A stretch of 63,971 bases of DNA, filler included, from Dimargaris cristalligena (lineage: Eukaryota), in assembly GCA_003614675.1 (NCBI GenBank). It is 5 parts of 5 records of this genome, joined end to end, with 100 filler letters (N's around TTAATTAATTAA, not from the genome) between each part and the next. Parts side by side here need not be neighbours in the genome. Positions count along the whole stretch, not along the records: positions 12,954 to 25,786 come from ML003021.1; 4 more parts are not named here. One strand, written 5' to 3'. A program made the translations under genes and the position numbers. Below are positions 708-48,263 of this stretch, in pieces. The notes beneath the pieces are model-generated. The model saw only the letters and a list, made by a program, of their open reading frames with translations, searched no databases and had not been told where the DNA came from. The stretch's first letter is position 1, and each line of letters opens with the position of its first letter.

Positions 708-2264
708 GGCGAAAACTAATTGAGGCTGGAACAGCAGACAAGGGTCTGTAATAATGTAAAAGGGATATACTGGAGAAGGGCGTGAATACAATATATTAAG
801 GTGAGAAGGAGAATGCTACAGTAGTGGTAAAGGAATTGGGGCCAAAGGTAGAGAGAGAGAGAGTTGAGTGGAGTGGTTGGTGTACGCGCAAGGGGGGGGT
901 GTGACGAGGCTTCTTCCCATTATAAGGAAAAAAACAGCAAGGCGGTGTGGTGGGTTGTTAGTCACGAATTATCAGATTATTTCCTTAGGACTGGGCATTT
1001 TCCAAAATTCAGTCGTCTCGTTAATGAAGTATCCTTCTCTGCTGCCACACACAGCACATGAATCTTCTTGACACAACTACCGGAGCGCCCTATAAAGCCC
1101 CGGCCCCGGTCCCCAATCACTGGCTCCGTAAATTTTCCACAAATGATTGGCGAGCCAGCAGGTCCTAAAAGTATCGAAATTTAGGCCTCGGCGCCATTCC
1201 AGTCAATTGATAGTATATTCCTCGACTATTGAGCGGAATACGTTTATGGATCTCTGGCAGGCTGTAGTTTATGATACAATACCGTTGCCAACTTTTCCAT
1301 TCTTTGGCATTCCTCTAGTTTAGGCGGTTTCTGAGATAATAGCCACATAGTGCGAGTCAGTTTTGCCCTAATTTAACTAGAGTCTCTCCTCGCATCAAAA
1401 TGCGCTATTTATTAGGTTCGGATTTAATCCCTAGTATACTATTCCTGAATCCCCGGATATTGGGTTTGTCCGTGGCCCTCTCCTATTTACATTGGGTGTC
1501 TAAATTTGCGGCTGCTTTCATAACTGTAGATTGAAGGAGGAATACGGGCATTTTTCGATTCACGGGCTGGTTTAGTAAACACCGCTCTTCTACTCACTTG
1601 CCGTGGCCGAAACCCTCGAAAACTGATTTCTATTATTGAATCGTTGAACAAACCCGTTGACTGGTGGTATTTTTTCATCGTACTCACTGTGGCTGTCCTA
1701 CTTTAGTTTCTCGACTAAGGATTATATACATATATATGTTATGCGTGAATCCTATATATACTCCCCACAAAGTGCTCCACTTGGATGCATTCCTGGACTT
1801 CCCCTTTTCTTAAAGTCAAGTTCATTTCCGCGATTCACCTTGGTTTGGCACGCCATTCTTCCAGTCTTCTTTCTTTTCGTTATCCAATACGAGTCCGCCC
1901 GTCGGGTACCTTGTGACTTGATTCAATCGCCTTCAATTCCCTGAGCAGTACCATCAATAGCTAGAATATACGCCCCCGCGGTGGTGTCAATCCCGGAAGT
2001 AGTAGTGTACACACCCCTTACCACAAGGTTCCAACGTACTCCCACCACCACGAAACAGCCGTATTCCCCTGTATTCACCTTTACTACATTAAACCCATTT
2101 ACAAGCCAACCCCATTGCTTTCCCATTGTTCCTTAGTGTACCAAAAGTATTATTGGCTATATATATTTGCGTAGACCGCTGTTTTGTCCTCTTAAGTAGG
2201 CCGTACTGCCATCGTCTTTTTTTTTTTCTCCACAGCTCCCCACCGCCTCCCATTTCCCCCGACC

Positions 2265-4402
<2,138 letters not shown>

Positions 4403-12953: not shown

Positions 12954-13589
12954 TTTGTGAATCGGAAATGGCCCCCTCCCCACAACGGGGAAAACGACCG
13001 GTTGGCACGATTGGACGGAAAAGCGACGCATGGTGCAGGCGCGACAAAACGGAAAGTAGGTGTAGGTCACGGAGAGACAATTGGAGTCCTGAACCAGCAA
13101 TTGCCCTATGGGCAGTTTATCCCACATCACTGGCCGGATCGGATGCGGGGCGAGAAACTCTAAGCCCGCCTGGCGTACCACCCGGGGAAGCACCATAAGT
13201 TCCCAAAATTCCGTGTTTTCCTGGGAGGCGGCATCAGGATCCAATGTCTCTTTCTGACAATTTTCGTACTCGGTTTCCGGGGCCGCTTTTAAAACCATGG
13301 GTTTAATGTCCACCGCCTTGGCCCGTTTTCGTTTACCCGTCGCGCTTTTTTTAGCGGGGGCCGTATCGGCGGGCGGGCCGCAGCCGGGGGTACGCTTGAT
13401 GGAACTGGGTGCCGGGTTGACTCGAATGCGACTCCAGCTAGACCGCAGGAAATTGGCCGGCGAGTCACCGCCATTTTTGGATTGGCCGTAATAGACCGGG
13501 GGCTTTCGTCGGGGAGTACGCCGCGGCGTCGACGTCACGGAACCCTGGCTTACATCGTCGTCGTCACTAATGGTTATTGCCCTGGGCAT
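12954..13589 (-). CDS. 5' part of a nuclear protein, possibly KDM3/JMJD1-like (truncated by contig end)
   Basis: ATG at 13589 (MPRAITISDDDD), basic NLS-like tracts (KRKRAK), then LVQDSNC...PFCRACTMRR...C, resembling the FLQDGSC...KCREC Cys-rich segment of KDM3-family proteins; JmjC domain not in window. Confidence 0.4.
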
Positions 13590-16519
13590 ATTGGGCACTA
13601 AAGAAAGGTGTCGGTGGCTTATCAACCCCGCGAACCAATAATCATACACACTGCAAAGACGGGGCCCAAGGGACTGCCGGTGTTGATATGGTATGTGCAA
13701 ACGTCGTAAGGCGAGAGGTAGTGGATACGGTTATAGTATAGGACGAGTAGTTACCGCGGAGTATTAAGGGAGGACAGGTAGTTTACGCGTTGGTTCGGCA
13801 GATAGAGTTATAAACTAAGAGTATCAGGTAAGAAGCTGGGGTTGGAAGGGAAGTGGGCAAAGCGGGGTACCCAATACTGGTTGGGTTCCGTCTACTCAAG
13901 TGGATAATCAAATACGGTGAGAAAATGGGGTGGTCATGCACTTGGTCACTGTCATAAGGGCTGTCCTCGACTGCATAGCTTAGACTACCCCACTCAGGAC
14001 TATAGGGTGGGGAACTATAAAGTAATATGGGCGCAATCAGGTTACCTCCGTTATTAATCAGAGCCTTTGCCTTCTTAAAAGACTCCTCCCCACTGGCCGT
14101 CATTTTAGGGCCACAGCCGAGGGAGTGTCCTCGGGCTGCAGACGGGACTGAGGGCCACTGGGGGATAGAGCCATTGGGGCGGGGGACTGCAAGTTACCCC
14201 GTAAATAACCGGGCGGCGGAAACTACGTGGAACCCTACTGCAGTACCATAACCCCTCTTCCTTGAATACTTCGCGGGGTTGGATAGATCGACGTAAGGCC
14301 AAATAGGCGACTGGGGGGGGCGGGGCACTATAACATAGTTCCCCGAAGGTTTACTAACAAGGCCCTTTAATATACATTTAGATGGACAACTGTCGGCCCG
14401 CTATTTTTGAACCCCACAGGCCACACAGTGCGTCAACTGGGGCCGGGATTCTTTAACCATGTTTGGGCTACCACTATAGATCAGGAATACCAGGCGAACA
14501 TTAAGGGCCATGCTACCATTAGTGATGCCATTGTACCTGTGAAGGTCTTGGGTGATTCGCCTGGTGATAATCTACCATTTTAGTAATCGTGGATGGATCG
14601 GTTAATCCATTTGGATAAAAGGCCAGTTTGGCCCCTAGGAGGGACTTCCAGGTGGCCTAATGGAGTAGATGACCGGGCATTTTTTAATGCCGCGGATGGC
14701 CAAGTTAAATGCCTATATTTACACAAATACAATGGTGTGCACGTTACCCTTGTGGCTGGGATAATATATTCATGACAACCAAATACTTATATTGGGTAAG
14801 AGCAGCACTCGATCTGGTCTTCGCCATTACTATACTGTGATATAGAGTCGCCGCTTTACCAATATCCGCGACAGGCGTCGCCTGCACCACGGCATTGCAT
14901 TGACTATAACGGGAGTTGCCCTAGACAATAATGCTTTAAATGTAGTCTCAGTCAGGGGCACCGTTTGCTCCAGCCTGACTACTGTGGACCCTGGCCATCG
15001 CAGCGGGAGCCATTCATCTAATCAGGCCCCTGCCCCTTCTTTACAGTATGGGCGTTCAGTTACTTATAATTACTGTTTGGCAGGCCTATTTTGTTGTAAT
15101 CAATTTGAAAATAACAAATGGGCGAGAAAGCCCTACTACAGGGCAGTTAGGCCATTCGCCGTTTCCATTAAAATACCCAGGGCGTCTAAATAGACCTGTG
15201 CTGGTACATGTCTCATATATCGTATATGGGAACTGGTATTACACCTCTATAGCAAATGGGAAACTCTTCTCAGAATAATGGGGGTTGGTCATGTGCCGAA
15301 TGTTGGTTGGTTGATGCAATCGATTGTCCCTCAGGCAGATTTTGCGTGTGCTATTAAACAATAGGTACGGTCAGTTGAAATGAGGGATAGCTTGGACTAT
15401 GGTCTTGGGACCAACTGATACCGAGTTCCCACAGCTGGCAAACAGGCTAGTTTTCATAGCAACTTTGCTGAATATTTTTGTGAACTCTCTTAAGCCGTGA
15501 ATTCACCACAGAACATCTAAAAACTGTATGGTTCGCAAGCCATTAACACAATCCACGTTATACATACACCTACTGATAGAAAGGTGGGGATGGAGTAACA
15601 GCAAGCGGCTTGACAGACCGAGGATCTTACCTGACCGGTCCGTCTTCTCACTTCGGTTCGCGCCTTATACAATCAACCATGCTCAGGGTATTCTCACAAT
15701 GTGCAATAGGTGTTTTTGGGACCAGAGCGCGCCTCAAAGTTGAGGCTGGTGCAGGTCCTATAGTACCCCCTCCACCTTTGGCACCAGATTCCACAAGCGA
15801 CAGCTTGCCCTGTCCAGGGTATTACCGAAGTATTTATCCGACCAAATTACTCTCCGTACTTTAACCATCCCCCCCGTCAACCCGACTGATGGCGGTATAG
15901 TAATAGTGAGGTTCTTCTACATCCATAAGTTGCCGGCCCTCCAACAGACCGGTGCATATTATTTATAGCCATTGCCTACTACGCCTAGGACTATTAACAA
16001 ATTACTTGACAAGGAAGGCTCTCCTCAAGCTGTAGTATCCAGTTTTGCGGCAAAACACTTGATACATTGCTACTGTAGTCTTGGGCTTGAGTACGCGGAT
16101 GTCTACTGTTGTTCTGGGATACCCTCTTTACTGATAAGTGCAATGTAAGCGGAACAGGGAAGAAAGGTGCGTTTTGGAAAGCATGAACGAGGTGGATTTT
16201 TTGCTATCCCAGAAACTGGTCCATCATCCCGCTGTTTAATGGGGTGTTTTTTTTTGCCATGGGCCTTGAAGCTGGCTTCCTCCACACGCGCGCATACACC
16301 CTACTACACTCGCCCTCCTCCTGCCTCCGAATGTCCTCCACCCAGTAGTGGCACACACTCCCTCCCAACGTCATAACAGGTAGCCGCGCTTCGTTCCCTC
16401 GCTATTTTTAAAGCTTCCAGGTGATCTCCACCTTATGCCTTCCCTTCTCTTTCCTTCTCATTCCCATCACTTCATAGCTCTATTCTCCCAGTTGATTCCA
16501 CGCCCCTAAAGTATCCACC

Positions 16520-19213
16520 ATGCTCGTCAAAGTCCGCATGCAGGAGGGTCTCCTCGGGACCATTGACATTCATAAACAGGAAGAAATAGCTGATGTCCGC
16601 GCCGCCGTCCTCAGGCTCCTCAAGAAAGAACTCAAGCCTAACTCCCATTTGCGCCTGTTCCACTTAGGCAAAGAGGTAAGATACCATCCCCTTCTATTGT
16701 TTCTATACAAGCACACCGAAGTACCATTGGGGCCCTGTGGTAAGGGAATCGGCCTCCCTTAATAGTCTATGTCCCTGCTTATTTCATTAGTTTGTATTTC
16801 ACTTGGTCCGATACGGAGACTTGGAACCAAGTGTTACCTTGTACACCAAAGCTACCGTCTATTTAGAGACCCCCGCACCTGGACTAGGCAACTAACCCTA
16901 TATACCTCTCCGATTTCATTACCTTTCTTTTTTGTGAAGCTTGCTGACGGCTTTACCGCCTGGGACTTCAATATCAGACCAAACGACACTCTGCTATGTT
17001 TTATGCGCGACACACCTCCCCAGTCGACCCCGACCAAGCCCACCTCGGCTGACTACTTGGCGGGTATAAGCTCTAATGATACACCAGGCCCCAATGAATC
17101 TTTGTCCTCCCCGGGCCCCAGCGTGCGTGCTACCCGCTCGACCAGCGACTCCATGCGCCCCCCCACCAGTCTTAACAAAACCCCCCGAGCAACCGCCACC
17201 CCAGAACCTAGTGGTACTCCCGCCGGTCAGACCGAGTATTGTTTGACCTGCAAAAACCAGGACGGCCGCAAATGCAAAATGTGCGGGTGCAAAGAGTGCG
17301 GGGGTAAGCAGGACGAGGATAAAACTCTGATTTGCGAGGAGTGCCAAATGTATTACCATATGTACTGCCTCCCAACCCCCCTGACCGAAGTGCCCACGGA
17401 CGACTGGTACTGCCACGACTGCTTCAACGATCCCAATGTAGTGATCAAGGCCGGCTCTAATAACATGGCCAAGTCCAAGAAGCGCAGCGCGATGCCCTCC
17501 GCCACCTGTACTCGCAAATGGGGCGGGGGTATGGCTTGCGCCGGGGTGGATAATAAGTGCACGATTGTCAAACCCGATCACGTAGGGCCTATTCCTGGTA
17601 TACATGTCGGCCAAACCTGGAAGTTCCGCATCCAACTAAGCGAGTCCGGGGTCCATCGTCCTCCCGTAGGTGGTATTGCCGGCAAGTCCGATGTCGGAGC
17701 GGTGTCTATTGTCATGGCCTGTGGATACGAAGAGGATGAGGATTACGGCGATGAGTTCATCTACACCGGTTCCGGTGGCCGTAACCTTAGCGATGGTAAT
17801 AAGCGCGTCGGAAAACAGACCTGCAACCAGGAACTGACCCGTTTCAATATGGCGCTTGCGCGCACTTGCGACGCCCCCTTCAATTCCACCACGGGCAATA
17901 CTGCCAATAACTGGAAAAATTCCAAAGCAGTGCGCGTGGTGCGCAGTTACAAACTGGCCAAAAACCACCCCATGTTCGCGCCGGAGGCCGGAGTTCGCTA
18001 CGACGGTATCTACCGGCTGGTTAAGTACTGGCCTGAGCAGGCCAAGTCATCCCCCTTCCTGGTCTGGCGGTTTAAGTTCCGCCGGGACGACCCCGAGCCC
18101 GCTCCCTGGTCTAAAGAAGGGATGGAGCGAATCGAACGCCTGGGACTGGTCATGGTTGGCCACGACCCGGAAACTGACCTGGAGGGGGTTGTGACCCCTT
18201 CGTCCAAACGGAAGGGCAAGGCGGCCGACAGCGAGTCACCGGCCAAACGGACCAAAGTCACTGCCTCGCCTGCAGATAAAAAGCCCCTTACGGTACTCCA
18301 AAATTTCCTTGTACCTCCGCCTGTACTGGCTCTTATCGATCGAGACACCGAGAACCGCCGTATTTGGCAAAAGGTGCTCCATATGGAACTGCCCAGTCTG
18401 AGCGCTCTACTCCGGCAGTTGGCTGAGCAGGACTTCATGTGCCCCATATGCCAAGACCTGGTAGATCCCCCAGTTACCACCAAATGCGGGCATAACTGCT
18501 GCCAACACTGTCTGACAAAATCCATCAAAACCTTCGGCCCCCAGTGCCCCGTTTGCCGTGGCCAGCTTGATTATCCCGAGGGAGAGCCTCTGCCCCTCAA
18601 CAATGCCCTGAGCCAAATTCTCCGCCAGTTAATCCCCAGTTACGGTGCGACAGTGACCCCGTTATCCCGCCAAAACTCGTCGACCAAGACGCCCAAGACC
18701 GCCAGGGCGACCAGGTCGACCACGACCCCCGCAGTTACCGTACCCACACCTGCTACTACTCCCCGGGCGGGTAATCCCCCTACCGATGAGGTGGATGTGG
18801 TTATATTGCCAGTTGTAGAACTTCTATCGGTTCAGACCTCCAGCTCTAATTTGGCCCCCAAGACAAACGGGACGGCCCGTAAGTCTACTGGGCGCCATGC
18901 CACTAAATCCATGGGTGGCAAATCTCGCAGAACCTCATCCCTGAATCCCACTTTGCCACTGCAGTCGGTCCAATCTCCGTCTACCCAGGACGTCTCCGCA
19001 GATTTGGACGCCCTGCTACTTTCTATCCCCGCTTCAAGCTCAACTGACCCCCAGCCAAGCCCCAGTTTAGACTCTCCAACTACATCCGATGACAAGACCC
19101 TTGTCTCACTTTCTGACGTCCTCACACCCTCTAAAATCCCCCAAACATCAATTGATGGAATGGACTCGGAGTCTTCCCAATCCGATAGACCATTAGTTAC
19201 GTTCAATCTATAA
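16520..19213 (+). CDS. UHRF1: UHRF1-like E3 ligase / hemimethyl-CpG reader (UBL-PHD-SRA-RING + long C-terminal tail); exons 16520-16675, 16940-19213; ~809 aa
   Basis: Spliced UBL (MLVKVR...LRLFHLGKE|LADGFTAWDFNIRPNDTL), UHRF-type pre-PHD/PHD (CLTC...CKMCGCKECGGKQDEDKTLICEEC...HMYCL...WYCHDC), WGGGMAC linker, SRA (GPIPGIHVGQTWKFRIQLSESGVHRPPVGGI...GYEEDEDYGDEFIYTGSGGRNLSDGNKR...GVRYDGIY), C3HC4 RING (CPICQD...CGHNCCQHC...CPVCR). Confidence 0.93.
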
Positions 19214-19264
19214 TATGATTCATCACCGAAGATGGCGATGGATGCTTTAGTGCAGGTTGCCATA

Positions 19265-19408
19265 ATATGGGTGGAATTCGACCCAGCTGTATAAGGTTTT
19301 AAATGATAACTGTACGGGATAATGTATGGGATATTTATTTTTAACCAACCATATTTGCTTCATCCAACGGATTTTTCATTATACAGCTCGGTTGAACCTC
19401 TCCCATAT
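19265..19408 (+). mobile_element. ~144-bp MITE-like hairpin element
   Basis: ATATGGGTGGAATTCGACCCAGCTGTATAA ... TTATACAGCTCGGTTGAACCTCTCCCATAT; starts ~50 bp after the UHRF1 stop. Confidence 0.8.
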
Positions 19409-19539
19409 GAAATGCTTTAAATGGAGTTTAAAAGCTACTTGGTACGACATTTACAATGGGTGAACTTTTAATGTGACTGTTAGCCAATTTCTACCATCAA
19501 CCTACTGTAATGAGATGCCAATTTCGGAGCCTTTTACTA

Positions 19540-21215
19540 GTCTTTGGATTATTTCAAGTATTAAACTTGTATTTAAATGGTAGTTTAAACTATGACACTT
19601 ACTCTTATTTTATATATGATATTTACACTACTTTATATAACATCCTAAGTATTTTATGTATAAAATATTTTTAGGTTATAAGATACTTTGGAAGGTATCT
19701 ACCTTCACCATCTCATTCAACCTTTCCTTAGGCTACAGTGATTCTTTAATGTAGTTGAATGGAATACAGACATAATGTTTTATTCTATATTCCCCTTTTT
19801 TAAAGAACCACCTTATCCTGAGTGTGGAATCATTTTACTATTGCATCAGATTTATATGAAAACTCTGATTATTTGAAATATATCTAATAAATATTACTAT
19901 AAAAATTTCAGTCATTGTATCTCTTTTTATCTATTATATATAAACTTCATATGTCATCTTGAATTAACACCAGGAGAGCTTGTAGTTATGTTAGTTAATT
20001 ATTCCAGGTGGGAATAATAGGTATAATCCGTCTTTATTTTGGTTTTTAAATATAATTTTTAGTATAAATTTTTTACTAATTAGAAATACAAAAGGTAAGT
20101 AGGTTAGAAAATGGACCTCACAACTGTAGTCATATTCATACTTATCTTACTCTCCTACTTTGTCTATATTCTATTATCAACTATTCAGTCACTACTCAAT
20201 AAAACCAAGTGAAGAGGTTCTCCTGAATCTCTTTGTGGCTTTTCTCTCTTATTATTATTTTGATATACTTTATTAGCTTGTGAATTCTATCTAGAATACA
20301 TCTCCAATAAAGTATACTCCCCATTCTGCCAATACTTAACATTTTTTGTTTATGGGTATCTATTATGATTCACCATATAGGTATCACTATTTTTCCCTTT
20401 TTGTTACTATATTATACCTTACTATAATACTATCTAAGATTAACTACTCCCACTGCCCTACTAATATTGTTATAACCCTTTATAAGGCTACTACTATCCC
20501 CCCTCCTAGCTCAGAAATAACAGGGGCTGTAGGTTACTTACCTAATAATATCAATACTATTATACCACCTCCTTAAGAACTACAAACTGTAGTGGCACCT
20601 GTACCCAGGCCCAGGTTACTAGGATATCTTCAGGACTGGTCCTGCAATCCCCCCCAGTGGCCCTGTAGGAATCCCTAACCCTGAAGTACCTAGTAACTCT
20701 ATAATATATCTAATAACCAAGCTACTGAGTTTATTAGAATAAACCTATTTGGAACTCAATTTAAACCAACAATACTACCAATGACCCAAATGTTACCAGT
20801 TATCAATATCAAGTGACCCAGGACCATTTGTGGTTATTCCTATAATGGTAATAAGGCCAGCTATTACCCTCTATTGCCCCTGAATACCCTAACCCCTCTG
20901 ATTAATTACCAGTATGTAAATAAGGGGCAATCAGCTATTATTAATAAACCAAACTTTTGAAGACCTATTTCTTACTTTTAAGACTATTAATTATTTTGTA
21001 AATTTTTACTAAATTCTTATTACTATTTGAACTCTTATTTTGACTATTCTCCCACTATTATATAACAATCCTACATCCCCTACCCTCACTTACTCTCCCT
21101 CACCTACACTTAAATAGGAGTTCCCTATTATAAGGAATACCTTTTTTCCCTTTACCTTTCCTAATTTGGTATACTACTACTACCTTTACCTATATTTTAG
21201 TAATCCTTTATTCTC
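19540..21215. mobile_element. AT-rich, CpG-depleted relic (probable decayed transposon sequence)
   Basis: Very TpA-rich, nearly CpG-free, no intact ORF, abuts an LTR-like copy; identity not decodable by eye. Confidence 0.45.
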
Positions 21216-21802
21216 TGTCAGCCCTCCTAATCTGACTTAATCCTGACTTAACAATTGTCTGTCCTTATTAGGCCTTATAGTACTATATTAACCCTCCCAT
21301 AGTCACCCCCAGTACTATAGGATCACCATCTATTATATAACCCTTCTCCTTCTAGCCCCCAATACTTTGCACCAAAACACTCAACCAGCCAATCCAAATA
21401 ACTCTTCTGGTTCCCATGAGAGTCTTCCAGATACAAGGCCATCCAGTCAGATTCCTTATTTACCTATACCTAGTCTTAGTAGTATCTCCCATTGGGACCT
21501 CCCTCTGGAGCTGTCCCCACATATATATAACCGGGCCCCATTGGGACTAGTTAGATTCCTTAGCTTATTCTTACCCCCTAGTTTACCCCTAATAAACCCT
21601 ATATATGATCACCTCCCCTTACTAACTAGTAAGTATGCCCACTGCATGTCCCTTACATACACCTACTACTTAGCCTATATTATTTAGTACTATATCCTGT
21701 ACCTAATGCTAGTAGCCCACTTGGCTAAGCCTAAGCCCTACTAACCATTAGAAACCTATCCTTGGGACTCTTAATGGAATAAGAGTGGTAAACCCATAAT
21801 AT
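21216..21802 (-). mobile_element. LTR-like repeat (family 1)
   Basis: Starts TGTCAGCCC; homologous along its length to 11799-12381 and 37878-38461. Confidence 0.75.
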
Positions 21803-22823
21803 AATAACCTATTATGTCCCCCCCTTCCATTTATCTTATAGAAAGACTATGAGTAATATTGGGTAGCCTGATTATAGATTAGCTATATAGGTGATACTAA
21901 TGAAGTTTACTATAAACCTTACTTTTTTGTATCATAACTTACCTTGTGGGGCCCTTGGCTGGCTCTATTTCTCTTCTTTCTACTACTATGTCTACATAAT
22001 GGCTAAAGAGGTGCTTAAAGAGCATTATAATAATAAAATAGCCTGGTATGGGAAAGCAGGATGCCCCACTTAATGAGGGGGGTAGGTCAGTGACCTGGGG
22101 CTGTTATTTACATAAAATCAATAATAAAGATTGACAAAGTGAAGTCTTAAGTAAATCACGATTTTACTTTTCGCGTATTCTCAGACTCCACCCATGCAGA
22201 GCCAGTGGATCTAGAACGGTCTCCCCTTTGTTGGCCTTCCCCTCGCACTATACAGTACATAGTGCCATTTCATTTACAATGGCCTTATACATCAATACTT
22301 GCCAACATTCTGTAGGTTACCCCCTTTCTCAGCGGGATTGAACTTTACTTTAAGATTTAATCCAGTAAATATGAACAGCCACATGGACCCTCATGGTACT
22401 CTTCAAGCACAGGGGTTTATTAATAACAGCCGAAAGCGGAAGAATAAATGCGCCCATACATTGATTTAGTTACAGTTGGGCAAACGTATAAATGACGATA
22501 GGGGGGGGGGGAAGAAATAGTGGGCATAGACATGTAGAAGCAAATGGAAGTATGGGGAGAGCAAGGTGAACGGATAAAAACATAGAAAAACAGGGGGGGA
22601 AAGATAAAAAATCGAGCCATAAGGGACGAGGAATGCGAACATTGGCGAACTAATCGAGTTGAAGGTAAGAGAGAAATACGGAGCTATAGGCCTGCGCGGG
22701 AAGGCGTCTTTGCTTAATGAGGTGTCGGAGTAACGAGGCTGTACGCATGCGCACAGAACCCCCCGCGAGAGAGGAAAGATAGTGTCGTCGACCCACAAAA
22801 AAAAAAAGGAAGGGGAGGCGCAG

Positions 22824-23737
22824 TTAGCAGCACTTACCGCTGGACTGCTTAGTCTCATTATCCGAGGGCACAATGATGTTGGAGCCCGCGCCTGGCTGCA
22901 CAGCATCCGGGGCCGATTCCAGGGCCTTGTTGGACACAATGCGGTAAATTTCGGTCAGAATCTTCTGGAAGGCCTGTTCGACGTTGCTGGCGTCGAGCGC
23001 GGATGTCTCAATGAACGACAGGCCGTTTTCGGCAGCAAAATTCTTGGCCTCTTCCGTCGGTACCGCCCGGAGGTGGCGCAAATCGCTCTTGTTTCCGACC
23101 AGCATAATCACAATGTTATTGTCGGCGTGGTCACGGAGTTCCTTGAGCCATCGGGTCACGTTTTCGTACGTCATGTGCTTGGCAATATCGTACACCAGGA
23201 GGGCGCCCACCGCGCCGCGGTAATAGGCGCTGGTGATGGCGCGGTACCGTTCTTGGCCGGCCGTGTCCCAGATTTGGGCCTTAATGGTCTTGTTGTCGAC
23301 CTGGATACTACGAGTGGCGAATTCGACACCAATAGTGGACTTGGAGTCGAGGTTAAATTCATTGCGGGTGAACCGCGAGAGAAGGTTGGATTTACCTACC
23401 CCAGAATCTCCGATGAGGACAACTACATATGGGGCAATAAATTGAGGGTGAAGGGTACGGGGGGAATAAGTAAGTCAGTAGGGAACCAGGCTGAATAGAT
23501 GGAAAATGTGGCACATGGGAATGGGCCACGAATAGATGAGGGGGGGAGGGACAAGGCTAAATAGGGGGGTTCATCTGAGCATCCCATTCCTTGACGTATG
23601 GGCAGTTCAAAACAGGTATTGAAAAGCATGTACGAGCTGACGGGTTCCTTTCACTACGGATATTACGAAGATGGGTACGGGAATGGTAACTCGGACTTAC
23701 CCTTGAACAAGTAGTCGTATTCGTCGTCTTTGCTCAT
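22824..23737 (-). CDS. YPT31: Rab11-family GTPase (Ypt31/32, Ypt3); exons 23701-23737, 22824-23422; 211 aa
   Basis: [35 protein letters not shown]...STIGVEFAT...[28 protein letters not shown]...GNKSDL...ETSAL; C-terminal CC prenylation motif. Confidence 0.96.
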
Positions 23738-24307
23738 GATGGACTTGGGAGGGGTGGAGTAAAAGGCTTAGAGAGCGGGTCGGAAAGGAAGGGTTAGATG
23801 TTGGGGCGGATCAATGGTGAAGAAGGAAAAGGTGCATGGGAGGGCCAAGATGAGAAAGAGCGGTGAGATGAGAGGATGGTGTATAGTATAGTCTAGTAGT
23901 AGGTTTGGGGTAAACGGCCGGCTGTATGTGGTAGCGAATGAGACCAGAGGGGAGAGAGACTTGCCCAAGTGGTTCGGGCGGTTTAGAACAAAGGGAGAGG
24001 AAACAGGGGGCCCAGGCGGATGATATATACGATGCAGGCCTCTCTAGATAGTGCGACCTAGGGGTGTTCTACACCTCGTGGGGCTCCTGGGTTCGAAACT
24101 GCAATGCAAGTGGCACGGTATAGCCAGACCAGGCCATTCAAAAGAATCCCTTGCCGTATCACATGTTGCGTAATGGCAGTGGAGACACCTCCTCATTAAT
24201 CAGGCTGGGGCTCTATTACTACTCCATTTACAACCCGCGGCATCGGGGTGTCCTGGTTTTATTAGCCCGGGTTGCACAATGTTTGGTGGACTTGTAATAT
24301 TGTATAT

Positions 24308-24450
24308 ATATGGGTGAAATGCGACCCAGCTGTAAAGGTTTTCCACAATATGTGTATGGGAAAACAGGCGGGATGCTTATTTTCAGCCTGTGGTTTTGGC
24401 TGTATCCAACGGATTCTTCACTATACAGCCTGGTTAAACTACTCCCATAT
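24308..24450 (+). mobile_element. ~144-bp MITE-like hairpin element
   Basis: ATATGGGTGAAATGCGACCCAGCTGTA ... TATACAGCCTGGTTAAACTACTCCCATAT. Confidence 0.75.
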
Positions 24451-24869
24451 TGATATTGCCCTGAAGTGATGAGCATTTAGGCCTTCTTTAAGTGGTAACA
24501 TTTATAAAATGCACCTTTAATATATAGAATAGTTAGTATCGAATAGAACAGAACAGACACCTCCTAGACCCATGGAGGGGAGCGAGAGGCAAGGTATAGG
24601 AGACCTACAGTCTCAGGACGTAGGTATCCCAGGTACACCATAGGCTATTCCTGTTGGCTGGTACAGTATATTGTATATAAGACAGGGTTTACCACTAGAT
24701 AACCCAGTACCTTCTTAGGACGGTCAACATGACCAAAAAGATAAATAAAGGCTTGCTAAACATTAGGCACCTGTATCCATAAAATCTGTTGGTAAATTTT
24801 CAAAAACTGGGAGGAACTCAATGATCTGTTATGCATAGGCATCCCACCTTCTTTTGACCAGGCCAAAAA

Positions 24870-25786
24870 TCATTGCTTCTTTGCAAAGAAGTGTCCCACT
24901 TTTGATTTCAATCGGGAGAGTAGAGTTGCCGAGTTATCAACCAGCTGGAAGTTAGCAAATAGGGTATTACCACCATACTCCTGAGGTTTCCGGTGTATAC
25001 TTTGGTCCAACTCACTACTGTCGGTTGGATTAGTAGCACCATCAGTAGTAGCCACAGCTATTCTTTCCATGTGAGCTTTATGGTATCCAGGAAGCAAATA
25101 AGGGGAAAAACTGGGAGAATCTGAATTAGTCATTGACTGCCCATATATATTGGATGTGAGCACCTGGTCGAGCTGAAATACCACCAAAGGCCCAGCCTGA
25201 AGCAGTTTACCATCATGGGTTAGATAAAGATATTTCTCATCCAAGAAGTACATAACTTTCCAGAAGGCCTTTTGGGGAGTTTTCAGATCTTTATACTACT
25301 TTGACTAAACATCGGACAGACAATTGATCACCTCAACTGAATGATTGGATTCATGGTGGCTAAGTAGGGCCTTTTGTGTAGCTAGAAAGCTATTTAACCC
25401 CTCTCTTCTCTGAATGTCGCCCAGCCCCACCATAGCACAGGATACCACTTCAATAGAAGGCTGGTGGCCTTTGATTGTGGAAAAGGCAATGACCAGCTGC
25501 ACAAGGTCCCAAATTCACAACACAACTTCCGGGGTTTTCAACTCTTTGTAGCTGAATACTTTGGCCTGGTGGGCAGTGGTGGCAACAACCAAGAAAAATT
25601 CCTCCACTTGACCCCATTCTTCATGGTAACACCACCACCCCAGAATGACCATCAGTACTCGGTGTACTACATCAAGCACCAAGCCATTTTTTATTGCCCC
25701 ACTCTCACTGAACTTATAAGGGATTACAATTGTACCAGACTGGTGTTCATTATTGGCCTTATTTTCAGTTACTTCAGCCAACTGGG
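24870..25786 (-). pseudogene. Disrupted ORF of unknown family (runs off contig end)
   Basis: ORFs 25515-25781, 25305-25502 and 24870-25253 are all one frame, separated only by in-frame TGA/TAG/TAG stops; internal repeat YKELKTPE / YKDLKTPQ; CpG-poor. Confidence 0.5.
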
Positions 25787-31782: not shown

Positions 31783-33522
31783 TTAAATCTGGAATCGCTC
31801 TTGATTGGGAAAACGGACTTGCAGTTCCCGCACTTCACGCTGGAGCACGCGTTTCTGCGAATCAGCCCGGCCAATAATCTCTTCGATGTGCTGGCGGTAG
31901 TTACCCGACAGTGCGGACAGGGGCAATTTGGCGGATACCTCATTGATAGCGTTCAGCACGGTGCTTAGTTGGTTGGGCAACCACGTCACAATGGGACTAC
32001 CCCCGGTAGCCACTGGGTGGGAGGTATACTTAATGATATACTCCTTAGTGAACATCCAGTGACGGTGACGGAACGCTCGGATCCAGTCTAAGTTCTCGAG
32101 ATAGAGAGCTAAATAATAGGTGGTTTGGAAGCGGGAAATATAGGTCATACATACAATGCGCATAAGTTAAGTTACAGCGAATGGTAGTGTTGTAAATCCA
32201 GCGATCCCTACTCAGGTATAATCTAACCTTGTTTCAAATCAGATACGATATGACATATAGCGGCTGTATCGATCCAGTAGCCTCACCGAGCTATAGCACC
32301 AACAATATTACGGCGAATATATTAATTTAAGTATTTCGGACGACTTACCGGTGGACTGTGGATCGCGCAGTGCAAAGTCCCGAACGCGAAGGTGGTTAGC
32401 CTCATTCTCCATGTGGGTTACAAAACCATGATGGTTCTTGGGTCGATAGTTCCGGAAGTCCCGCAGGGTCTGGGTAAGGGGGTTATTGGGCATATGGGCC
32501 GTCAACTGAAACAGGTTGTCGCTGGTGGGGATGATACTGTCATTGGCGCCACTTTCGCCGCGGTAAAAACGAGGATTGGATTGGGCGGGCGTTCCTTCAA
32601 ACGTGATGCCGTTGGGGAACATGGGCTGGTTCTTGGTTCCCATGATGAATGTGCGGAACGACATGTAGTCCTCGGCCCGACTGCGTTTCCACATGGTCTC
32701 CATGACCTGGTTAATCTTATCCATAGTATCCCGGTAAAGCTCCAAACTGGCGTTAAAGGCGGTCCGGTCCTGGTCCCGCACCCCCTGGAGTACCCCCAGG
32801 GCGCTGGAGACCAACGGGCCCGTATGGGCCACCATGGCCACATGGACTAGAATGAACCCGTGCTCGGACGGACAGCCCGAGAACTGGCGCACCAGATCTA
32901 AATTGTTATAATCCAGTCCCTGGCTAGGGTCGCGGAGGCGGTAGTTGTAGAGGGAGTATGATTGGGCATACTCCATAAACGGCATCGCACCAATTTTGGC
33001 CGCGACCACTTCGAGCGGCTGGGCAATTGCACGGGGCAAGACATTACGGCCTAAACCGTACTCTCCCGTTTGGCGGTAAAGGCGGTCGCAGGGTTCGAGT
33101 AAGTAAGCCGATGCCAGAAACGTCAGGTCCCGGAAGAGGGCCGTCAGTAAACGGGGGTCGGTTTCGCGGGACACGTCGTACACGGGTAATTCCTGGTCGA
33201 CGGCGGCCCCTAACCTTCCCTGGCCGAGCAAGCCCGCCGAACCGTCGGGCAACTTCAGCGGCATGCGCTGAAGGAGATCCTCCAAAACGCCGAACCGTTC
33301 GGGCAGGGCAGTTAGGGGGTCTTGGGTGGGCAGAAAACCCCGACGGCCATCGACGATAAACTGACTGGTCGGGTCGGGATTACTCCAGACCGGGGAGGGG
33401 TGGTGAGTCAGGGGTTGGGCTTTGCGTACCACGGGGGTAGCCCGCAGACCGAATCGGCGGACGGCGGGGGATTGGAAGGCCGAATGGCCAAAGACGGGGG
33501 AAACCCGAGTCAAGCGCAACAT
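31783..33522 (-). CDS. Indoleamine 2,3-dioxygenase family protein (fungal IDO-gamma-like); exons 32349-33522, 31783-32108
   Basis: RGFLP, ASAYLLEPC, PFMEYAQSYSLYNY, SEHGFILVHVAM, FRTFIMG, YRGESGANDS, FRHRHWMFTKEYI (proximal His) and ATGGSPIVTWLPNQL motifs. Confidence 0.88.
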
Positions 33523-36500
33523 AAGGATGGGTGAACAGAAGGGGAAAAATAAATTAAATGGTAAGGGTGTGCAACTAAGGTGTAATGGTTGTATTTGATT
33601 AAATACACCAGTGAGCTTGGAATAGGGCTGTTGTAACCAAGGAAATGGAAACGGGGAGTAAGGTATGGGTTATCAAATCCTCTAACAGTATTTCGCACTG
33701 TTAGAAATTCGAAATGGGTGAACGTGAGGAGAAGGGGAGAATGCGCCAAAGGTAAATGGTATGTTGGTAATGACGGTTAGAAGGATGGGGCGACCTGGCA
33801 TGTTTAAATACTTTTGATTTGGGCCAAACATTGGAGGTCACGAGCCTGTGACTACACTTTCATGCCCTTTGGGGCTCGAATAATAGGCACTTGATTCCGG
33901 ATAAACTAACACTTAATATTCGCGTAAGTTGAATGAGAATGGGGAGGGGGAGGGGGAGTGTTCATAATTCGGCGAATCCGAAGTGGTCAGTTTTGGTGAA
34001 ATCTAGGGTGTCCAAAGAAAAATTACCGGGGACACCCCTTATTTTTCGGGGCTAGCCCTTATTGCGTTGCTAAGAAGGGCAATGTATCAGTTATTACCAT
34101 TATACCTTGATAGAATAGGGCCAGCTATGCTTAGGGGAACTCAGGCAGCTATTGTTAATCCAGCTTATCATTATCTAGAAAACAAAAGTTGCGGGTGGAC
34201 TAACCAATTCCAACCAATGATGGGTGGGGAACATCGCGCGTGAAGGACAGCATCCCTTGCTCATAGTGGCGGTCAAAATGGTCATTTCGGGAGGGGCATA
34301 TTCTTCCTTTACTAAAAGTAAAATCACGGGTATGTCCAGCGTGACTGTATGTCCTATAAATAATAAGGGGCCCGAAATAGGATAGGTGATGGGATTGGCA
34401 CAGACGTTTATGAAGGGATGTATTTAGAAAAAGACCGTTTTTTCGGGTGGATTGATGGCTCAATCCTCCTTCAGGTTTAATAAGCCAATAAAAAGACAAT
34501 TATTTATTGTTATATCAGGGGGGCGGATAAATCGTACTGGACACTAAATGTGAAACCCCCCCAACCTCGAGCACTGAGGTTCCTCTTTAATCCTCTAATG
34601 GACTGGGTGGGTCACCCCACCTTGGAAGCCAGGAGAATTACCAGCCTCCATTGGTCTAACCTTTGGATGAACCAGTGCCCTTGTTGATGAGCGTGCAGTG
34701 TATGTGTTTGAGTAAGTAGTACGAAAATCATGAGACTGGCGTTCCCGACCCCTTTTGAATTAGAAAACACGACGAGTCGAAAAAAGGCACTGCCCATTCT
34801 TGAGAGGGAAGTGTATACAATGGCATAATCGATGGTACTCCAGCGACTCCTAAATCAGGTCTCGCGAGATAGAAAGCGTACCCTATACCCCAGAGTAGAA
34901 CTACTTGAAACGTAATGACCCGCGGTGACAGTCCTCCAAAATTGCCCCCCTTTAAGCCCTCCCGGCTCAATTTAGAAGTCTGAGTTACAATGCATAGAGA
35001 ACTAGGACTGCGCTTAGCACTGGTTGTAACTATGCATGAGCGGAACAATGAATTAAATTGGTGACTAATGGGCAGGCTAAGAGGTATCATTGTGATTCTA
35101 AGCCAAGTGCTATAATATTTGGTTTCTCTAAATGATTGACTTCCCGTCGAGCTCTAAGATGGAGGTTGACTTTCCAATGTGTCTTGCAAGTTGGTTTTCC
35201 ACTGAATACGCCCGCTGACTTAGTAATGTACCATTTTTCAGTAATTCAGTACTAATAGACAATATTGTCGTCAAAGTTCTACTAGACTAACAGTACACCA
35301 GTTATCCCGAAGGTTTACCCTTTAGGCCCGAATAGCAGTCGCTCTGAGGAGGCGGGTTCCAGTAAAATTCTAAAACGAGGGTTTTAAATACACCTTCAAT
35401 GGTACCCGCGCATATTTATTATAGTATGATGTTAGTCATTCGATACACGAAACGTAATAAAATAGTTCGAGGCAAAAATTAGAAATCGACTCTACAGCTG
35501 CCTGATGGTTTCTATGCGGGACTTGTGACTGCATAACTAAGGGCCCGGCAAAAAGATAACAGTTGATGCAAATTGCCACCCCCCGGTTCTAACCTGAAAT
35601 CCCCCCACCTTAAATTCACACAAGTTACGACCAATAACATAAGCGAAGGTCTGACCCAGGCGATGAAATTGTAGATAGAAAAAAGTAGGCCGAATTTACC
35701 GACCTCCTGTTTTAACTATGTGTCGATGGGGAAGGAGTGGGGAAGGGTGGCAGGGTAAAGAAAAACAGCCATAACAATTACAACAATGACGGACCGGCTG
35801 GCGGATAAAAGTGGAAAGAACGGTTGGAATCCACACTAGTAATATGTTACCCTTCACTTCGGCACCCTTTTGAGTAATATTGTTTAAAAAAAAGCAGTCA
35901 CAAAATATTCCCAGCACACACACGCGCCAGTCGTAATGTTGGGGTGGATCGGCTCGCCAACTGTCAATCCAATTGGTGCACTGATGGGTTCATCCCCAAC
36001 ATCCAAGGGACTTTGGTCGCACATGTGCTTTGATGGAGGCGAACTTCTTCCTGTACTCCACCAGCCTGTATCGATTTTATTTTATGAAACACCCCCCACC
36101 CACCGGGTCGAGTATACAAGTGAGACTTGTCACTCTTTCCTCTACAGCCTCCCTTCAGCGATCTCTCTTAAGCGGCTACTCTCTTTGGGGCTGGACCAAT
36201 AACCAAAATGTTATTTTCAAAGCGACCCCATGGTCATGGTGTGACTCCAATCGCAGCTGAGAATGGGCATGTTTCCGCCTTGCTCACATTCTTGGAACAA
36301 CTATAGCTTAGCTATAATTACACTGTGTAGATTAGTTGGCGTCCGGCAAGACTAGTGAACTGCATATATTTCTTGACGTACATTTATTAAGGGGGCTGGG
36401 TCGTCAACCAACAAATAGCCCAGTACTCGGAGACTATAGAAGCAGATATGCAAGTCCCGAAGAGGGTTGCTTTGACCATTAAATTAAAAGAGTAGGCCCA

Positions 36501-39449: not shown

Positions 39450-42400
39450 CTAACGTTCGTCAGCGGGTGGTGGATGGGTGTCGCGGGCCCTTAGTAACCG
39501 CATTACAATCTCAGTATCATTCACCGATTTTTTGGCCTCCCGGTTTAGTTTATTTCGTCGTTGCCGGTTGCCATACGCCCAGACGGTTTTCCGCCGTTGA
39601 ATATCGCGGCGCCGAGCGGCGAATTCCGGCATTTGGTCCCGTTTGGTAAAATTCACGTACAGGTCCACCAGGTCCTCGGTGGGCAAGTGGTAATATTCGC
39701 GTATCTTGAGCAAGTCGTAGTAGTGGCGGGATTGCAGTCGGTCGATGAGGTCCACGTCCCCCGTGGGATCGTCGTCACCGTTGAAGAAAAGCTTGAGTCG
39801 CTCGAGGCAGGCGTAAATAATGCCGAGCTGACCCGGGGTTAGTACGGTGTACTGATCATCATCAAACGGACCCTGGCCGGGCGGTAGGAGCAGGTCGTCA
39901 AAAATATAGAGGATTTCCCGCCAGATTTTAACTACGATGTTCTTAGAAACACCGCTGTGTAAATTTTGGAACAGGACGGCCAGGTTAGTGTTGAGATAGT
40001 CGGTCAGGGGCTGCAGCACGAGGTCGCAGTGGATCGCTTCCCGCGACATTGTGTCTACCGGGTCCTCGGGAAGGGACGAAGACGATTTCGAAACCGGGTC
40101 GGAGGTGGGGGTATGCGAGCTTGGGGAGCCGGAGTTACTGACTGGTGGGGTCGACCCAGTCGCCTTTCCTAAAAACGCTCGGAACTTGTTGCCTAAAAAC
40201 GAGGAAGATGATGGGGCCACGGCGGACGTGGTCGTTAGGGCACCTGTCTCAGCGGGTCGACTAGCTGCGAGCGGTGGTGAGGGGCGGGGAGGGGGAGGAG
40301 CATCCTTCAGAAGATTCTTAAACGCCAAACAGTCACGCATATAGTTGGACATTTGCTGAACGATCATCCTGCCCATACCGCTCTGGGCCAGCTGAATCAT
40401 GCGGAAAATCTTACCAAAGTAGAATTGGGTGTCGGCCTTTTCCAAGTCGACGGTCGCCCGCAGCCAAATCCGGCCGGTGGGCCGGAAATCGAGGTAGAAA
40501 TCCTTGGTGACTTCATCGCGGAAGGCACTGGGGTCGAAGGGAATGGATGCGTAGGCGTAGACCTCCTCCTTATCGGTGTAATCATCAATGTCCTGCACGG
40601 TAATGAGCAGGTTACAGGGAATATTATCGACTGAAAATTCCACGTGTTCATCCCAACGGGGGTTAGTACCCAGGAAACTCGGCCGGGAGCGGCCCAGTTT
40701 CCGTTTGGTACCCATGTTCGTAAACTCGATAAAGGGCCGTGGATTGGCCTTGTCCAGGGACAGGCTCTCAGCGTGTAAGACGTGGAAAGAGACGAGAAAG
40801 GTATCGACTTCGGCGGGCGGGGCGGCTGACGAGGTGGGCGGCCGTTCGATGCGGCCCAGATGGGTTTCCACACCAAGGGCGTCGTACATTTGGTTGACCC
40901 GTTCCTCAATCATATGCAGGTTATTGAGAGCCGTGCACGACTCGATACTAAAATACACGGGCTGGCTGTTTTCGGCCCCTTGGGTAATGATTACCCCCAT
41001 GCTGCGGAGAAACATACTCGAGCGATCCGCGAACGATTTGGTGCCCCCGAGGGCCATCATGGCCAGGGTTTCCATGAATTTCTTCTCGACGCTTTCCCGG
41101 TAAATATTAAGCATGTCAAGCATTATTTTGGCGAACCGCTTCATGATTTCTTCTTCGACCGCCGCGTCGGGCCAGGTTATTTTACGAATGAGCTCAATCT
41201 GCTGGAAAAAAATGGCCGAGACATCGATGACGGACGAAGAATAGGGGAAGCGCTCTCCTTCGTATTGGGTCTACCGTTTGTAACAATGTGGCGTACCATT
41301 TAGTGGGAGGTGATCAACAGAGTATAGGTTAGTATGGGGAGGTCTGCCATAAATGACGTGGGATGTCCGGGTGGAGAGGAATGCCCATTTTGATCCACCT
41401 TCTAATTAACCCGAAATATTTCACAGTTAAATGATAGATAGGTCTCACGGGTGCTTACCGTTTCAATATTAATGGCATTCGTAATCCAAGTTGGTATGTC
41501 AGATTCAATCTGGGCCATCCACCGAAAAAGGTGCTTTTTCAGCCAAATGGGGAGTTCGTCCCGGAGCAGAGGTACACCGGCTATATTGATTGCGTGCTCG
41601 TTAAGATCGTAAATGACTTCGTAAATATCCAGGGCGTTGGCCAGGTCCACCTCACCATCCCGCGGAGTATTGATAATATTCTGTACTTCCAGTTTGAGGC
41701 ATTTGAGTTCACTTTCCAGGGCAAAGGCCGCCACGTGGATTACATAATTAGGGGAGAGGGCAATTTTCGGGAGGAGCCGGCCAATGTGGCGACTATCCTG
41801 TTCCACAAGGGTGGACAAGTAGGTAAGGGGTAGAATTTCGGAGTCGGGGTACGCGGCCTCGGCCACCTCGTGCAACTTCTGGTAGCGTTGCACAGCGGCG
41901 GACTGGATGGTTTGGACCATGTCGCCGTACATGGCGGGAATACGGTCCAGCATGACCCGCTGGAACACCGCGCTGTTGACCAGTTGGACGAGGAGATCGA
42001 CGGCGAACACGGAGGCGGTTTTCTGGGACATTTCCATATGCATGACGGTGAGGGCGAAGTCTTCAATTACCCAGGTTTGGATTTCGGTGAAGATGGTTAA
42101 GCACAAATTGAGGTCCTGTTGGGTCCAGATATTTTTGGGGGATTCGTAGGCACGCTCCATGTTATCAAGGGCCTCAAGTAGGTAGGGCTGGGGGATCTCG
42201 CGGCGAAAGACCATGGTTTTGATAACGTCCAACTGGATAATCTCGTGGGCCTGCTGGGGGACGCGCCAGAACTTGGCACATTGGTTTAGAAGTAGGAGAG
42301 ACGCCTCCGAGAGAGTGGGCTTCTCGGCCGGGGGTTCGGGCTTTTCGAATGCTACGCACACATCTCGGTAAATACAACGACCCAGGAGTACTTGGTAGCA

Positions 42401-47598: not shown

Positions 47599-48263
47599 GG
47601 AATAGCCGCCGGGTGGGAGGTAGGTTCTGGGCCCGATATGCAAACGTAGTAAAGTAAGCGGCAAGTAGTAAAGTCTCGAAGTCACCCTATATGGAATCCA
47701 AAGTCAAGGCATATTTATTATAGACCCCGTGCAGAGTGGCTCCTTCCATGGTAGGAGTGCGCTGCTTATATGAGAATAGGAAGTTTCTATGCCTATTGAA
47801 ACTCATGGCCAGAAGGAACTCCAATACCACATTTGGCTGGATATTCGAAATATACATGGACCATGGGATATTATTTCTCTAAAGGCGGGGCCAGGCATAC
47901 TGGGTCTTTTTCACTATGAATTGTATCTTTTGGCCTGGGTTGAATATTTTTTACCCGTTTAATTTACCTTGCCAAATAATTTCGTGCATTTTTTTTTCTA
48001 ATTCGCTGTAGCCATAGCCTGGAATCACTCTTCGTTCCCAAACGCAGTGTCTGGCCGGCTCAAGGTGTGGCGATTAGACTATTCAATTGCGTCCATATTA
48101 GCCCTTTGCGCTTTTTCACCCCCTCCTCTATAGAAGCTACTTTGCACTTTGTGGCATTGGCTTCGCATACCTCGCATACTCCATCTTTTTATCTAGTTCC
48201 GACCAGCACTGTCCCCTAGCTTCTAGCCACAGTTGATTAGCCGCCAAAAAAATAAATAAAGCC

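Follow-up and report, generated by a model that had tools for sequence, protein, structure and literature searches.

A candidate histone H3K9-type mimic in the C-terminal tail of a Tudor-less UHRF1 from Dimargaritales

A stretch of 63,971 nucleotides from the genome of Dimargaris cristalligena (GenBank assembly GCA_003614675.1), which is called the window throughout, contains in its part from record ML003021.1 (positions 12,954 to 25,786) a two-exon gene whose product, as judged from its sequence, is a genuine orthologue of UHRF1 (UBL-PHD-SRA-RING, where UBL is the ubiquitin-like domain, here putative) of a Dimargaritales-type zygomycete. Animal UHRF1's tandem Tudor domain (TTD) is absent from this protein, and the chain continues for 188 residues beyond the RING region. 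Within this extension, which is predicted to be disordered, the short sequence [TV]-A-R-K-[SR]-[TM] is retained in the orthologues while its surroundings diverge, and the alignments described below mark it as a short linear motif under selection and as the one part of the tail that is conserved. Its resemblance to histone H3 around lysine 9 leads to the reading that is tentatively favored here, that the conserved motif is an H3K9-type histone mimic; this is held as a serious possibility that falls short of a probable one.

A conserved island in a divergent tail

The motif region of the window, at 18872..18922 on the plus strand (ACG GCC CGT AAG TCT ACT GGG CGC CAT GCC ACT AAA TCC ATG GGT GGC AAA), translates to TARKSTGRHATKSMGGK, which occupies positions 645-661 in the exon-2 protein and shares the reading frame of the PHD, SRA, and RING domains. 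The original prediction had described two H3-like units here, TARKSTG, matching H3 6-12 at seven of seven positions, and the weaker ATKSMGGK, matching H3 7-14 at six of eight; both counts and the translation are confirmed when the H3 strings quoted in that prediction are used for scoring. From the same strings a nine-residue H3 6-14 sequence was composed, to which the best match in the window tail is 7/9. The expected count of TARKSTG is 3.4e-6 in composition-matched shuffles of the tail and 8.4e-6 across the whole exon-2 protein, and that of ARKS is 0.004 in composition-preserving shuffles of the tail; on these sequence statistics a chance match of TARKSTG appears unlikely. A phmmer search with a 50-residue segment around the motif against the sequences of the PDB returned no histone, its sole hit being ribosomal eL34 (E 4.7), because the match to H3 is too short to score. 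As the tail is of low complexity and rich in Ser, Thr, and Pro (33, 29, and 21 of its 188 residues), an argument from a single sequence is fragile, and its weight rests on comparison with relatives.

Relatives were collected in two ways. The first, a word-indexed search over 5.8 billion protein clusters, yielded 14 hits, of which the five best, 49-54% identical to the query, all belong to the Dimargaritales: Dispira simplex, Dispira parvispora, Dimargaris xerosporica, Dimargaris verticillata, and Tieghemiomyces parasiticus. These were followed by proteins of Basidiobolus, Coemansia, and Linderina and then by four further proteins (P0010-P0013) and a plant ORTHRUS-like protein. The second, a full HMMER scan, covered 1.84 billion representatives and retrieved 6553 proteins at E<=0.001, and no further tail of the Dimargaritales type is present among the best 150 of these. 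Among 72 homologues with an alignment extending through the whole RING region, the majority stop 0-4 residues beyond it, the four Kickxellales-type proteins extend by 19-24 residues, and the five Dimargaritales extend by 181-192.

All six tails contain exactly one ARK, located at 39-64% of tail length, and in a MAFFT alignment of the six its columns are the only invariant ones. The aligned contexts are NGTARKSTG in the window, RRNVARKRTG in both Dispira species, RTATARKRT in both Dimargaris orthologues, and RRNTARKSM in Tieghemiomyces. When one species was taken from each of the four lineages and 68 ungapped six-column windows of the alignment were scored by pairwise identity, the ARK block reached 26 of 36 identities, compared with 11 of 36 in the best window not overlapping it, and pairwise identity outside the block is 13-25%. 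Comparison within the closer pairs gives a similar picture. The two Dispira tails are 61% identical, with the motif inside an identical run of 24 residues, the second longest of five such runs of at least 5 residues; in the Dimargaris pair, whose tails are 51% identical, it lies inside the longest identical run, of 14 residues. The comparison suggested in the original prediction, whether ARKS is conserved in an otherwise divergent tail, thus finds [TV]ARK[SR][TM] kept in five of five Dimargaritales orthologues. The second unit, which that prediction had credited with a K14-like GGK and a K23-like ATK, did not survive the same alignment: ATKSMGGK stands opposite gaps in every orthologue and is therefore taken to be an insertion specific to the window.

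Likeness to H3 is not confined to the three invariant residues. The best match to H3 6-14 is 6/9 in the tails of Dispira simplex (VARKRTGGS; P 0.0020 in global and 0.0066 in local-20 shuffles), Dimargaris xerosporica (TARKRTKRK; P 0.0026 and 0.0032, respectively), and Tieghemiomyces (TARKSMPRK; P 0.0046 and 0.0074), compared with 3-4/9 (P>=0.49) in eight long control UHRF1 tails from other lineages. The lineages retain different parts of the H3 sequence: the window tail has S10, T11, and G12; Dispira has T11, G12, and G13; Dimargaris has T11 and K14; and Tieghemiomyces has S10 and K14. Differing subsets of this kind fit a motif that descends from an H3-like sequence or has been selected towards one, and are not expected of a generic basic patch. 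The Tieghemiomyces motif (P0006), read as ARKSMP, also resembles the H3K27 context, A-R-K-S-A-P, and may be of K27 type instead of K9 type. The motifs of all six tails, as ARKS or ARKR, fit the EHMT substrate pattern [ASGNLKEC]-R-K-[SVTRQNMLKEAGR] (PMC10611923).

Competing explanations for the motif

Several observations weigh against an H3K9-type mimic. The residue following the lysine is Arg, not Ser or Thr, in Dispira and Dimargaris, and Arg at +1 is atypical for ligands of HP1-type chromodomains. When the four tails were searched without bias for their best BLOSUM62 block, the result was not significant: shuffles reached the observed block score in 238 of 2000 trials at a width of 6, 326 of 2000 at a width of 7, and 111 of 2000 at a width of 9, and at widths of 5 and 11 the top block differed or was inconsistent and was not the aligned motif. 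Some shared 3-mer is found among four shuffled tails in 31% of trials, and ARK by itself, depending on the lineage, in 4-11% of globally and 16-26% of locally shuffled tails. The tests of the motif as stated beforehand and the alignment-based tests are preferred to the block test because S/T/P-rich shuffles readily yield high-scoring blocks, and since the six tails share one ancestor, the P values of individual tails measure retention, not independent origin. The orthologue tails are themselves taken from predicted "hypothetical protein" models. In the window, the R-K-S codons of the motif (CGT AAG TCT) include the hexamer GTAAGT, at which a hypothetical in-frame intron of 123 nt (18879..19001) that can be drawn on paper would begin, and the sequencing runs listed as containing the stretch comprise 5 DNA runs from 2 studies and 0 RNA runs.

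The splice-site look-alike and the composition of the listed runs, together with the low complexity of the tail, the result of the block test, and a weak codon-usage score (-0.09 bits/codon in the tail against 0.25 for the domains), speak for the simplest alternative, in which the match is a coincidence within a fast-evolving S/T/K/R-rich tail or the region is intronic or mis-annotated. Several other signs make this very improbable. The tail frame is free of stops over 188 codons, compared with 11 and 5 stops in the other two plus-strand frames, and GC content, 0.545 over the tail, drops to 0.32 past the stop codon. The orthologous tails are of nearly constant length, the motif occurs in all of them within their most conserved islands, and the shuffles described above rarely produce TARKSTG. 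The single copy of GTAAGT in the 2274 nt of exon 2 is at the level of chance (about 0.56 expected). A different alternative accepts that the motif is conserved and regards its likeness to H3 as incidental, the conserved residues serving outside the histone machinery as a nuclear localization signal (NLS), as a contact to DNA or to the acidic patch, or as a site for a basophilic kinase (R-K-x-S/T). This is consistent with the K/R-rich surroundings in three of the four lineages (RKRTKRK, RKRTGGSKKK, RKSMPRKR), with a K[KR]x[KR] core that overlaps the motif in the Dimargaris pair, with the Ser or Thr that is always found at +1 or +2, and with the basic Q-R-A-x-R-[ST]-[GS], mostly without the Lys, in the short tails of four of four such Kickxellales relatives. 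A minimal NLS core is found within 12 residues of ARK, however, in only two of the six proteins (the Dimargaris pair, thus one of four lineages); K-[KR]-x-[KR] occurs nowhere in the window tail; and basic clusters are already present between SRA and RING, in a linker with, for example, KRTK at residue 436. Neither the invariant Ala nor the lineage-specific retention of H3 T11, G12, G13, and K14 would be explained by an NLS or kinase site, and none of the eight other UHRF1 tails that are long and basic matches H3 in this way. On balance, a function outside the histone machinery is regarded as rather unlikely.

The last alternative keeps the tail within the histone machinery and assigns it another role, that of a pseudo-substrate in cis: the adjacent RING would mono-ubiquitylate tail lysines at or after the motif, on which the RFTS domain of DNMT1 would dock, so that the extension would act as a PAF15 or H3 tail joined to the ligase. 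A precedent is provided by the RING of animal UHRF1, which mono-ubiquitylates H3 at K14/K18/K23 and PAF15 at K15/K24, and by the DNMT1 RFTS, which reads two such marks (PMC9614205); the RFTS has also been reported in a preprint to read H3K9me3 (10.1101/2020.04.27.064493). In the fungal proteins, the tail begins directly after the RING and lysines follow ARK within about 9 residues in all the orthologues, including those at the K14-equivalent position in Dimargaris and Tieghemiomyces; in the window they fall at +8 and +13, a spacing of 5 that is also that of H3 K18 and K23. What is conserved, however, is A-R-K with two flanking positions and not the downstream lysines, whose offsets differ in every lineage (window, +8/+13; Dispira, +6 to +8; Dimargaris, +3/+5/+9; Tieghemiomyces, +5), and the GGK/ATK unit of the window is missing from all five orthologues. 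Moreover, the motif is internal (residue 645 of 757) and so has no free N-terminus. It is through a free N-terminus (A/V-R-T-K) that H3 and PAF15 engage the PHD of UHRF1. The platform for cis-ubiquitylation and DNMT1-RFTS docking put forward in the original prediction is therefore weakened by the shifting positions of lysines that every species nonetheless possesses, and this alternative appears improbable.

The UHRF1 gene, its tail, and its surroundings

Table 1. Positions, within the window, of features of the UHRF1 gene and of its surroundings
Feature	Positions	Strand	Basis or remark
UHRF1 orthologue gene, two exons	16520..19213	+	Reading frame and orthologue comparison
Exon 1, 52 codons, N-terminal half of putative UBL	16520..16675	+	ATG at 16520, GT donor at 16676
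Intron 1, 264 nt, GTAAGA...AG, phase 0	16676..16939	+	Sequence reading
Exon 2: rest of putative UBL, low-complexity linker, PHD, SRA, RING, tail, TAA stop	16940..19213	+	
PHD finger	17288..17422	+	Pfam PF00628, E 2.9e-07, residues 117-161
SRA (SAD/SRA) domain	17579..18091	+	Pfam PF02182, E 2e-43, residues 214-384
RING finger	18437..18559	+	Pfam zf-C3HC4, E 2e-07, and zf-C3HC4_2, E 1e-06, residues 500-540
C-terminal tail, 188 aa, Dimargaritales-specific, predicted disordered	18647..19210	+	Frame, orthologues, AlphaFold2
KTARATRST patch	18695-18721		At a distance from the RING similar to that of the Kickxellales motif
Acidic-hydrophobic patch DEVDVVILPVVELL	18785..18826	+	About 20 residues before the ARK motif
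TARKSTG, conserved H3(6-12)-like core	18872..18892	+	7/9 match to H3 6-14
GTAAGT hexamer, look-alike of the consensus 5' splice site	18879..18884	+	Inside the R-K-S codons
ATKSMGGK, second, weaker H3-like unit, window-specific	18899..18922	+	6/8 match to H3 7-14
ORF without Pfam match	2196-3032	+	Adjoins the GCN5-type ORF
ORF with GNAT acetyltransferase fragment and bromodomain	3527-4402	+	Bromodomain E 1.2e-22
Antisense stop-to-stop frame, 175 aa	18832-19359	-	Overlaps the tail
High-copy repeat	19263-19350		Starts about 50 nt past the stop codon
Indoleamine 2,3-dioxygenase	32308-33669	-	
MUN + C2 (Munc13-like)	39450-41270	-	
PPR-repeat gene	45328-47703	-	

At 28 of 52 positions (54%, E 7e-18), the exon-1 peptide agrees with the Dispira simplex orthologue over residues 1-52 of the latter, and the Dispira parvispora protein (P0003) has its residue 54 aligned with residue 2 of the exon-2 protein, so that the junction between the exons is supported, at the level of predicted sequence, by its collinearity with the orthologues. 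The GC content of intron 1 is 0.44, compared with 0.57 in the domain-bearing stretch of exon 2 (16940-18636). The stop-to-stop frame extends without interruption from 16766 until the TAA at 19211-19213 and yields an exon-2 protein of 757 residues, for which the best sequence match in the PDB is full-length human UHRF1 (793 aa, E 6.5e-128). The individual domains align to the corresponding structures: the PHD, which is located before the SRA, to UHRF1 PHD structures (E about 1e-18), the SRA to those of UHRF1 and UHRF2 (E about 1e-72 to 1e-79), and the RING to the UHRF1 RING structure 3fl2 (E 4e-15). The UBL is less distinct. No Pfam match to it was obtained when its two exon halves were scanned separately, and its alignment to residues 53-104 of human UHRF1 is weak (2.9 bits); in the Basidiobolus orthologue, PF00240 is present.

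No match to the TTD family (PF12148) is found in the window protein at E<=0.1. In exon 2, the place at which animals carry this domain, between the UBL and the PHD, is occupied only by a low-complexity linker of about 70 residues, for which AlphaFold2 (AF2) returns pLDDT values of 33-40, and the protein is therefore a TTD-less variant of UHRF1. A similar distribution is seen among the search hits, where PF12148 is present in none of the eight named fungal proteins compared with four of four of P0010-P0013, of which three are named insect UHRF1s and one is unnamed.

At the other end of the protein, the alignment with human UHRF1 runs from the PHD to human residue 790 of 793, which matches the fungal IPSYG ending at 18646. 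As only three human residues remain at this point, the 188 fungal residues that follow before the stop represent an addition. Thus, the Tudor-less domain arrangement and the continuation of about 190 residues past IPSYG stated in the original prediction are both borne out.

In an AF2 run on the window protein with a 48-sequence alignment, the PHD, SRA, and RING are modeled with confidence, with pLDDT above 90 in the SRA, while values fall to 31-38 from residue 591 to the end and remain below 50 throughout 576-757. The tail shows no secondary structure in this model and no rise in confidence at the motif, which is thus predicted to act as a short linear motif of a tail that is disordered and accessible, much as in a histone tail. 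A model in which the motif docks intramolecularly and is autoinhibitory was dropped, as no confidence bump appears anywhere in the tail of the full-length AF2 model.

Additional features of the tail deserve mention in their own right. The acidic-hydrophobic patch DEVDVVILPVVELL resembles a SUMO-interaction motif, and comparable patches occur in the tails of Dimargaris (DEPMVIVNV) and Tieghemiomyces (YVLLD). Contigs from four DNA runs of another study differ from the window in this gene by a single change and contain no indels: CTA>TCG at 18824-18826, an in-frame, whole-codon Leu-to-Ser change upstream of the ARK motif, which turns the last Leu of the patch into Ser. Four Kickxellales-type UHRF1 homologues (P0016, P0046, P0008, P0009) share a C-terminal W...Q-R-A-[LRK]-R-[ST]-[GS] within their tails of 19-24 residues. 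Its distance from the RING fits the proximal RATRST of the window better than it fits the ARK motif, and the two sequences may represent a proximal patch of basophilic phospho-sites or a sequence from which the ARK motif arose.

About 12 kb upstream of UHRF1, an ORF that combines a GNAT fragment with a bromodomain is on these grounds assigned as a GCN5-type histone acetyltransferase gene. Past the stop codon, the summed contig depth over the high-copy repeat is 1e4-8e4, compared with 6-62 over the gene, and many loose ends are found at 19264-19265 and 19305-19308. The antisense frame that overlaps the tail is probably a by-product of the S/T-rich codons of the plus strand. The more distant neighbors are listed in Table 1.

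Histone mimicry and maintenance methylation

Mimicry of H3K9 is a known device. H3K9-like mimics on G9a/GLP, LIG1, and ATF7IP become methylated and then dock HP1, the UHRF1 TTD, and MPP8, and the residue after the lysine serves as a phospho-switch, phosphorylation of which switches docking off (PMC9768651). The animal TTD reads both H3K9me2/3 and LIG1K126me2/3 (PMC9614205). Among these systems, a close parallel is with human LIG1, whose K126 mimic reads IPKRRTARKQLPK (PMC7585203): like the window motif, it is built around T-A-R-K, lies within a disordered segment of a replication or chromatin protein, and belongs to the UHRF1/DNMT1 maintenance pathway (PMC7585203, PMC9614205), and its upstream arginines recall the RRN[TV]ARK of Dispira and Tieghemiomyces (PMC7585203). 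Unlike LIG1, the fungal mimic would be located on UHRF1 itself, so that the direction of recruitment would be reversed, and because the fungal UHRF1 has no TTD, a different reader would be needed.

The automethylation sites of G9a/GLP and the mimic of ATF7IP resemble the fungal motif as A-R-K-[ST]-type sequences on heterochromatin factors (PMC9768651), with the difference that two of the fungal lineages have Arg at +1 and that methylation of the fungal motif is a prediction. In these proteins, and in SETDB1, for which preprints reportedly describe an H3K9-like motif, the carrier is a methyltransferase or its cofactor, whereas the fungal carrier is a reader of hemimethylated DNA and an E3 ligase. 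PAF15 and the H3 tail itself, as H3-like basic tails on whose lysines the UHRF1 RING places single ubiquitins for the DNMT1 RFTS to read (PMC9614205), offer a further comparison. They act in trans and with a free N-terminus, whereas the fungal motif is internal and in cis and is followed by lysines that are not conserved in position. Human UHRF1 contains a basic linear motif that engages the methyl-lysine machinery, its polybasic region (PBR, residues ~644-655; PMC7585203), and an RK motif of the human protein has been modeled as a candidate EHMT2 substrate and a candidate for histone mimicry (PMC10611923). In human UHRF1 the PBR is located between the SRA and the RING and has the TTD of the same protein as its binding partner; the fungal motif lies in the extra tail after the RING, and, unlike the PBR, it gives no sign of intramolecular docking in the AF2 prediction.

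Taken with its conservation, these parallels make a mimic function of the tail motif plausible from the sequence comparisons and suggest a UHRF1 whose H3-like tail motif is marked and read in the manner of a histone. We infer methylation of the motif, the type of its reader, and a link to DNA methylation along the following lines. The lysine of the motif would be methylated by the H3K9 methyltransferase of the organism, and a methyl-lysine reader, an HP1-type chromodomain or an equivalent, would bind the methylated motif. Binding would tether UHRF1 to H3K9-methylated chromatin or to a complex of writer and reader and would so make up, in trans, for the reading function that disappeared together with the TTD. 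The Ser or Thr adjoining the lysine could then act as a phospho-switch similar to H3S10/T11.

A bolder and less supported model would have UHRF1 carry its own portable H3 tail. Upon binding of hemimethylated CpG, the K9-like lysine would be methylated and the tail self-ubiquitylated, and the resulting "H3K9me-Ub" epitope would recruit DNMT1 or another methyltransferase directly. Such a DNMT1-docking scheme is considered improbable. If it were true, maintenance methylation could proceed independently of nucleosomal H3 and of a Tudor reader, with reader, substrate, and docking platform combined in one polypeptide.

The Dimargaritales are mycoparasites and are hard to grow. Literature searches found no description of a UHRF1 tail or of a histone mimic in early-diverging fungi and no paper linking Dimargaris or the Dimargaritales with DNMT1 or methylation. 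In a wider context, DNMT1 and UHRF1 are reported to co-evolve, and three other members of the Zoopagomycota carry CDCA7F (PMC10538959).

What would be new in the H3K9-type mimic favored here is its conserved presence on UHRF1 itself, in a lineage without the Tudor reader. Animal UHRF1 couples DNA methylation to H3K9 methylation through its TTD, and a motif of this kind on the ligase suggests the reverse wiring. If the reading is true, histone mimicry extends to the central adaptor of maintenance methylation, and the Dimargaritales would be a natural experiment in how a lineage that has lost a domain can re-establish the connection between DNMT1, UHRF1, and heterochromatin.

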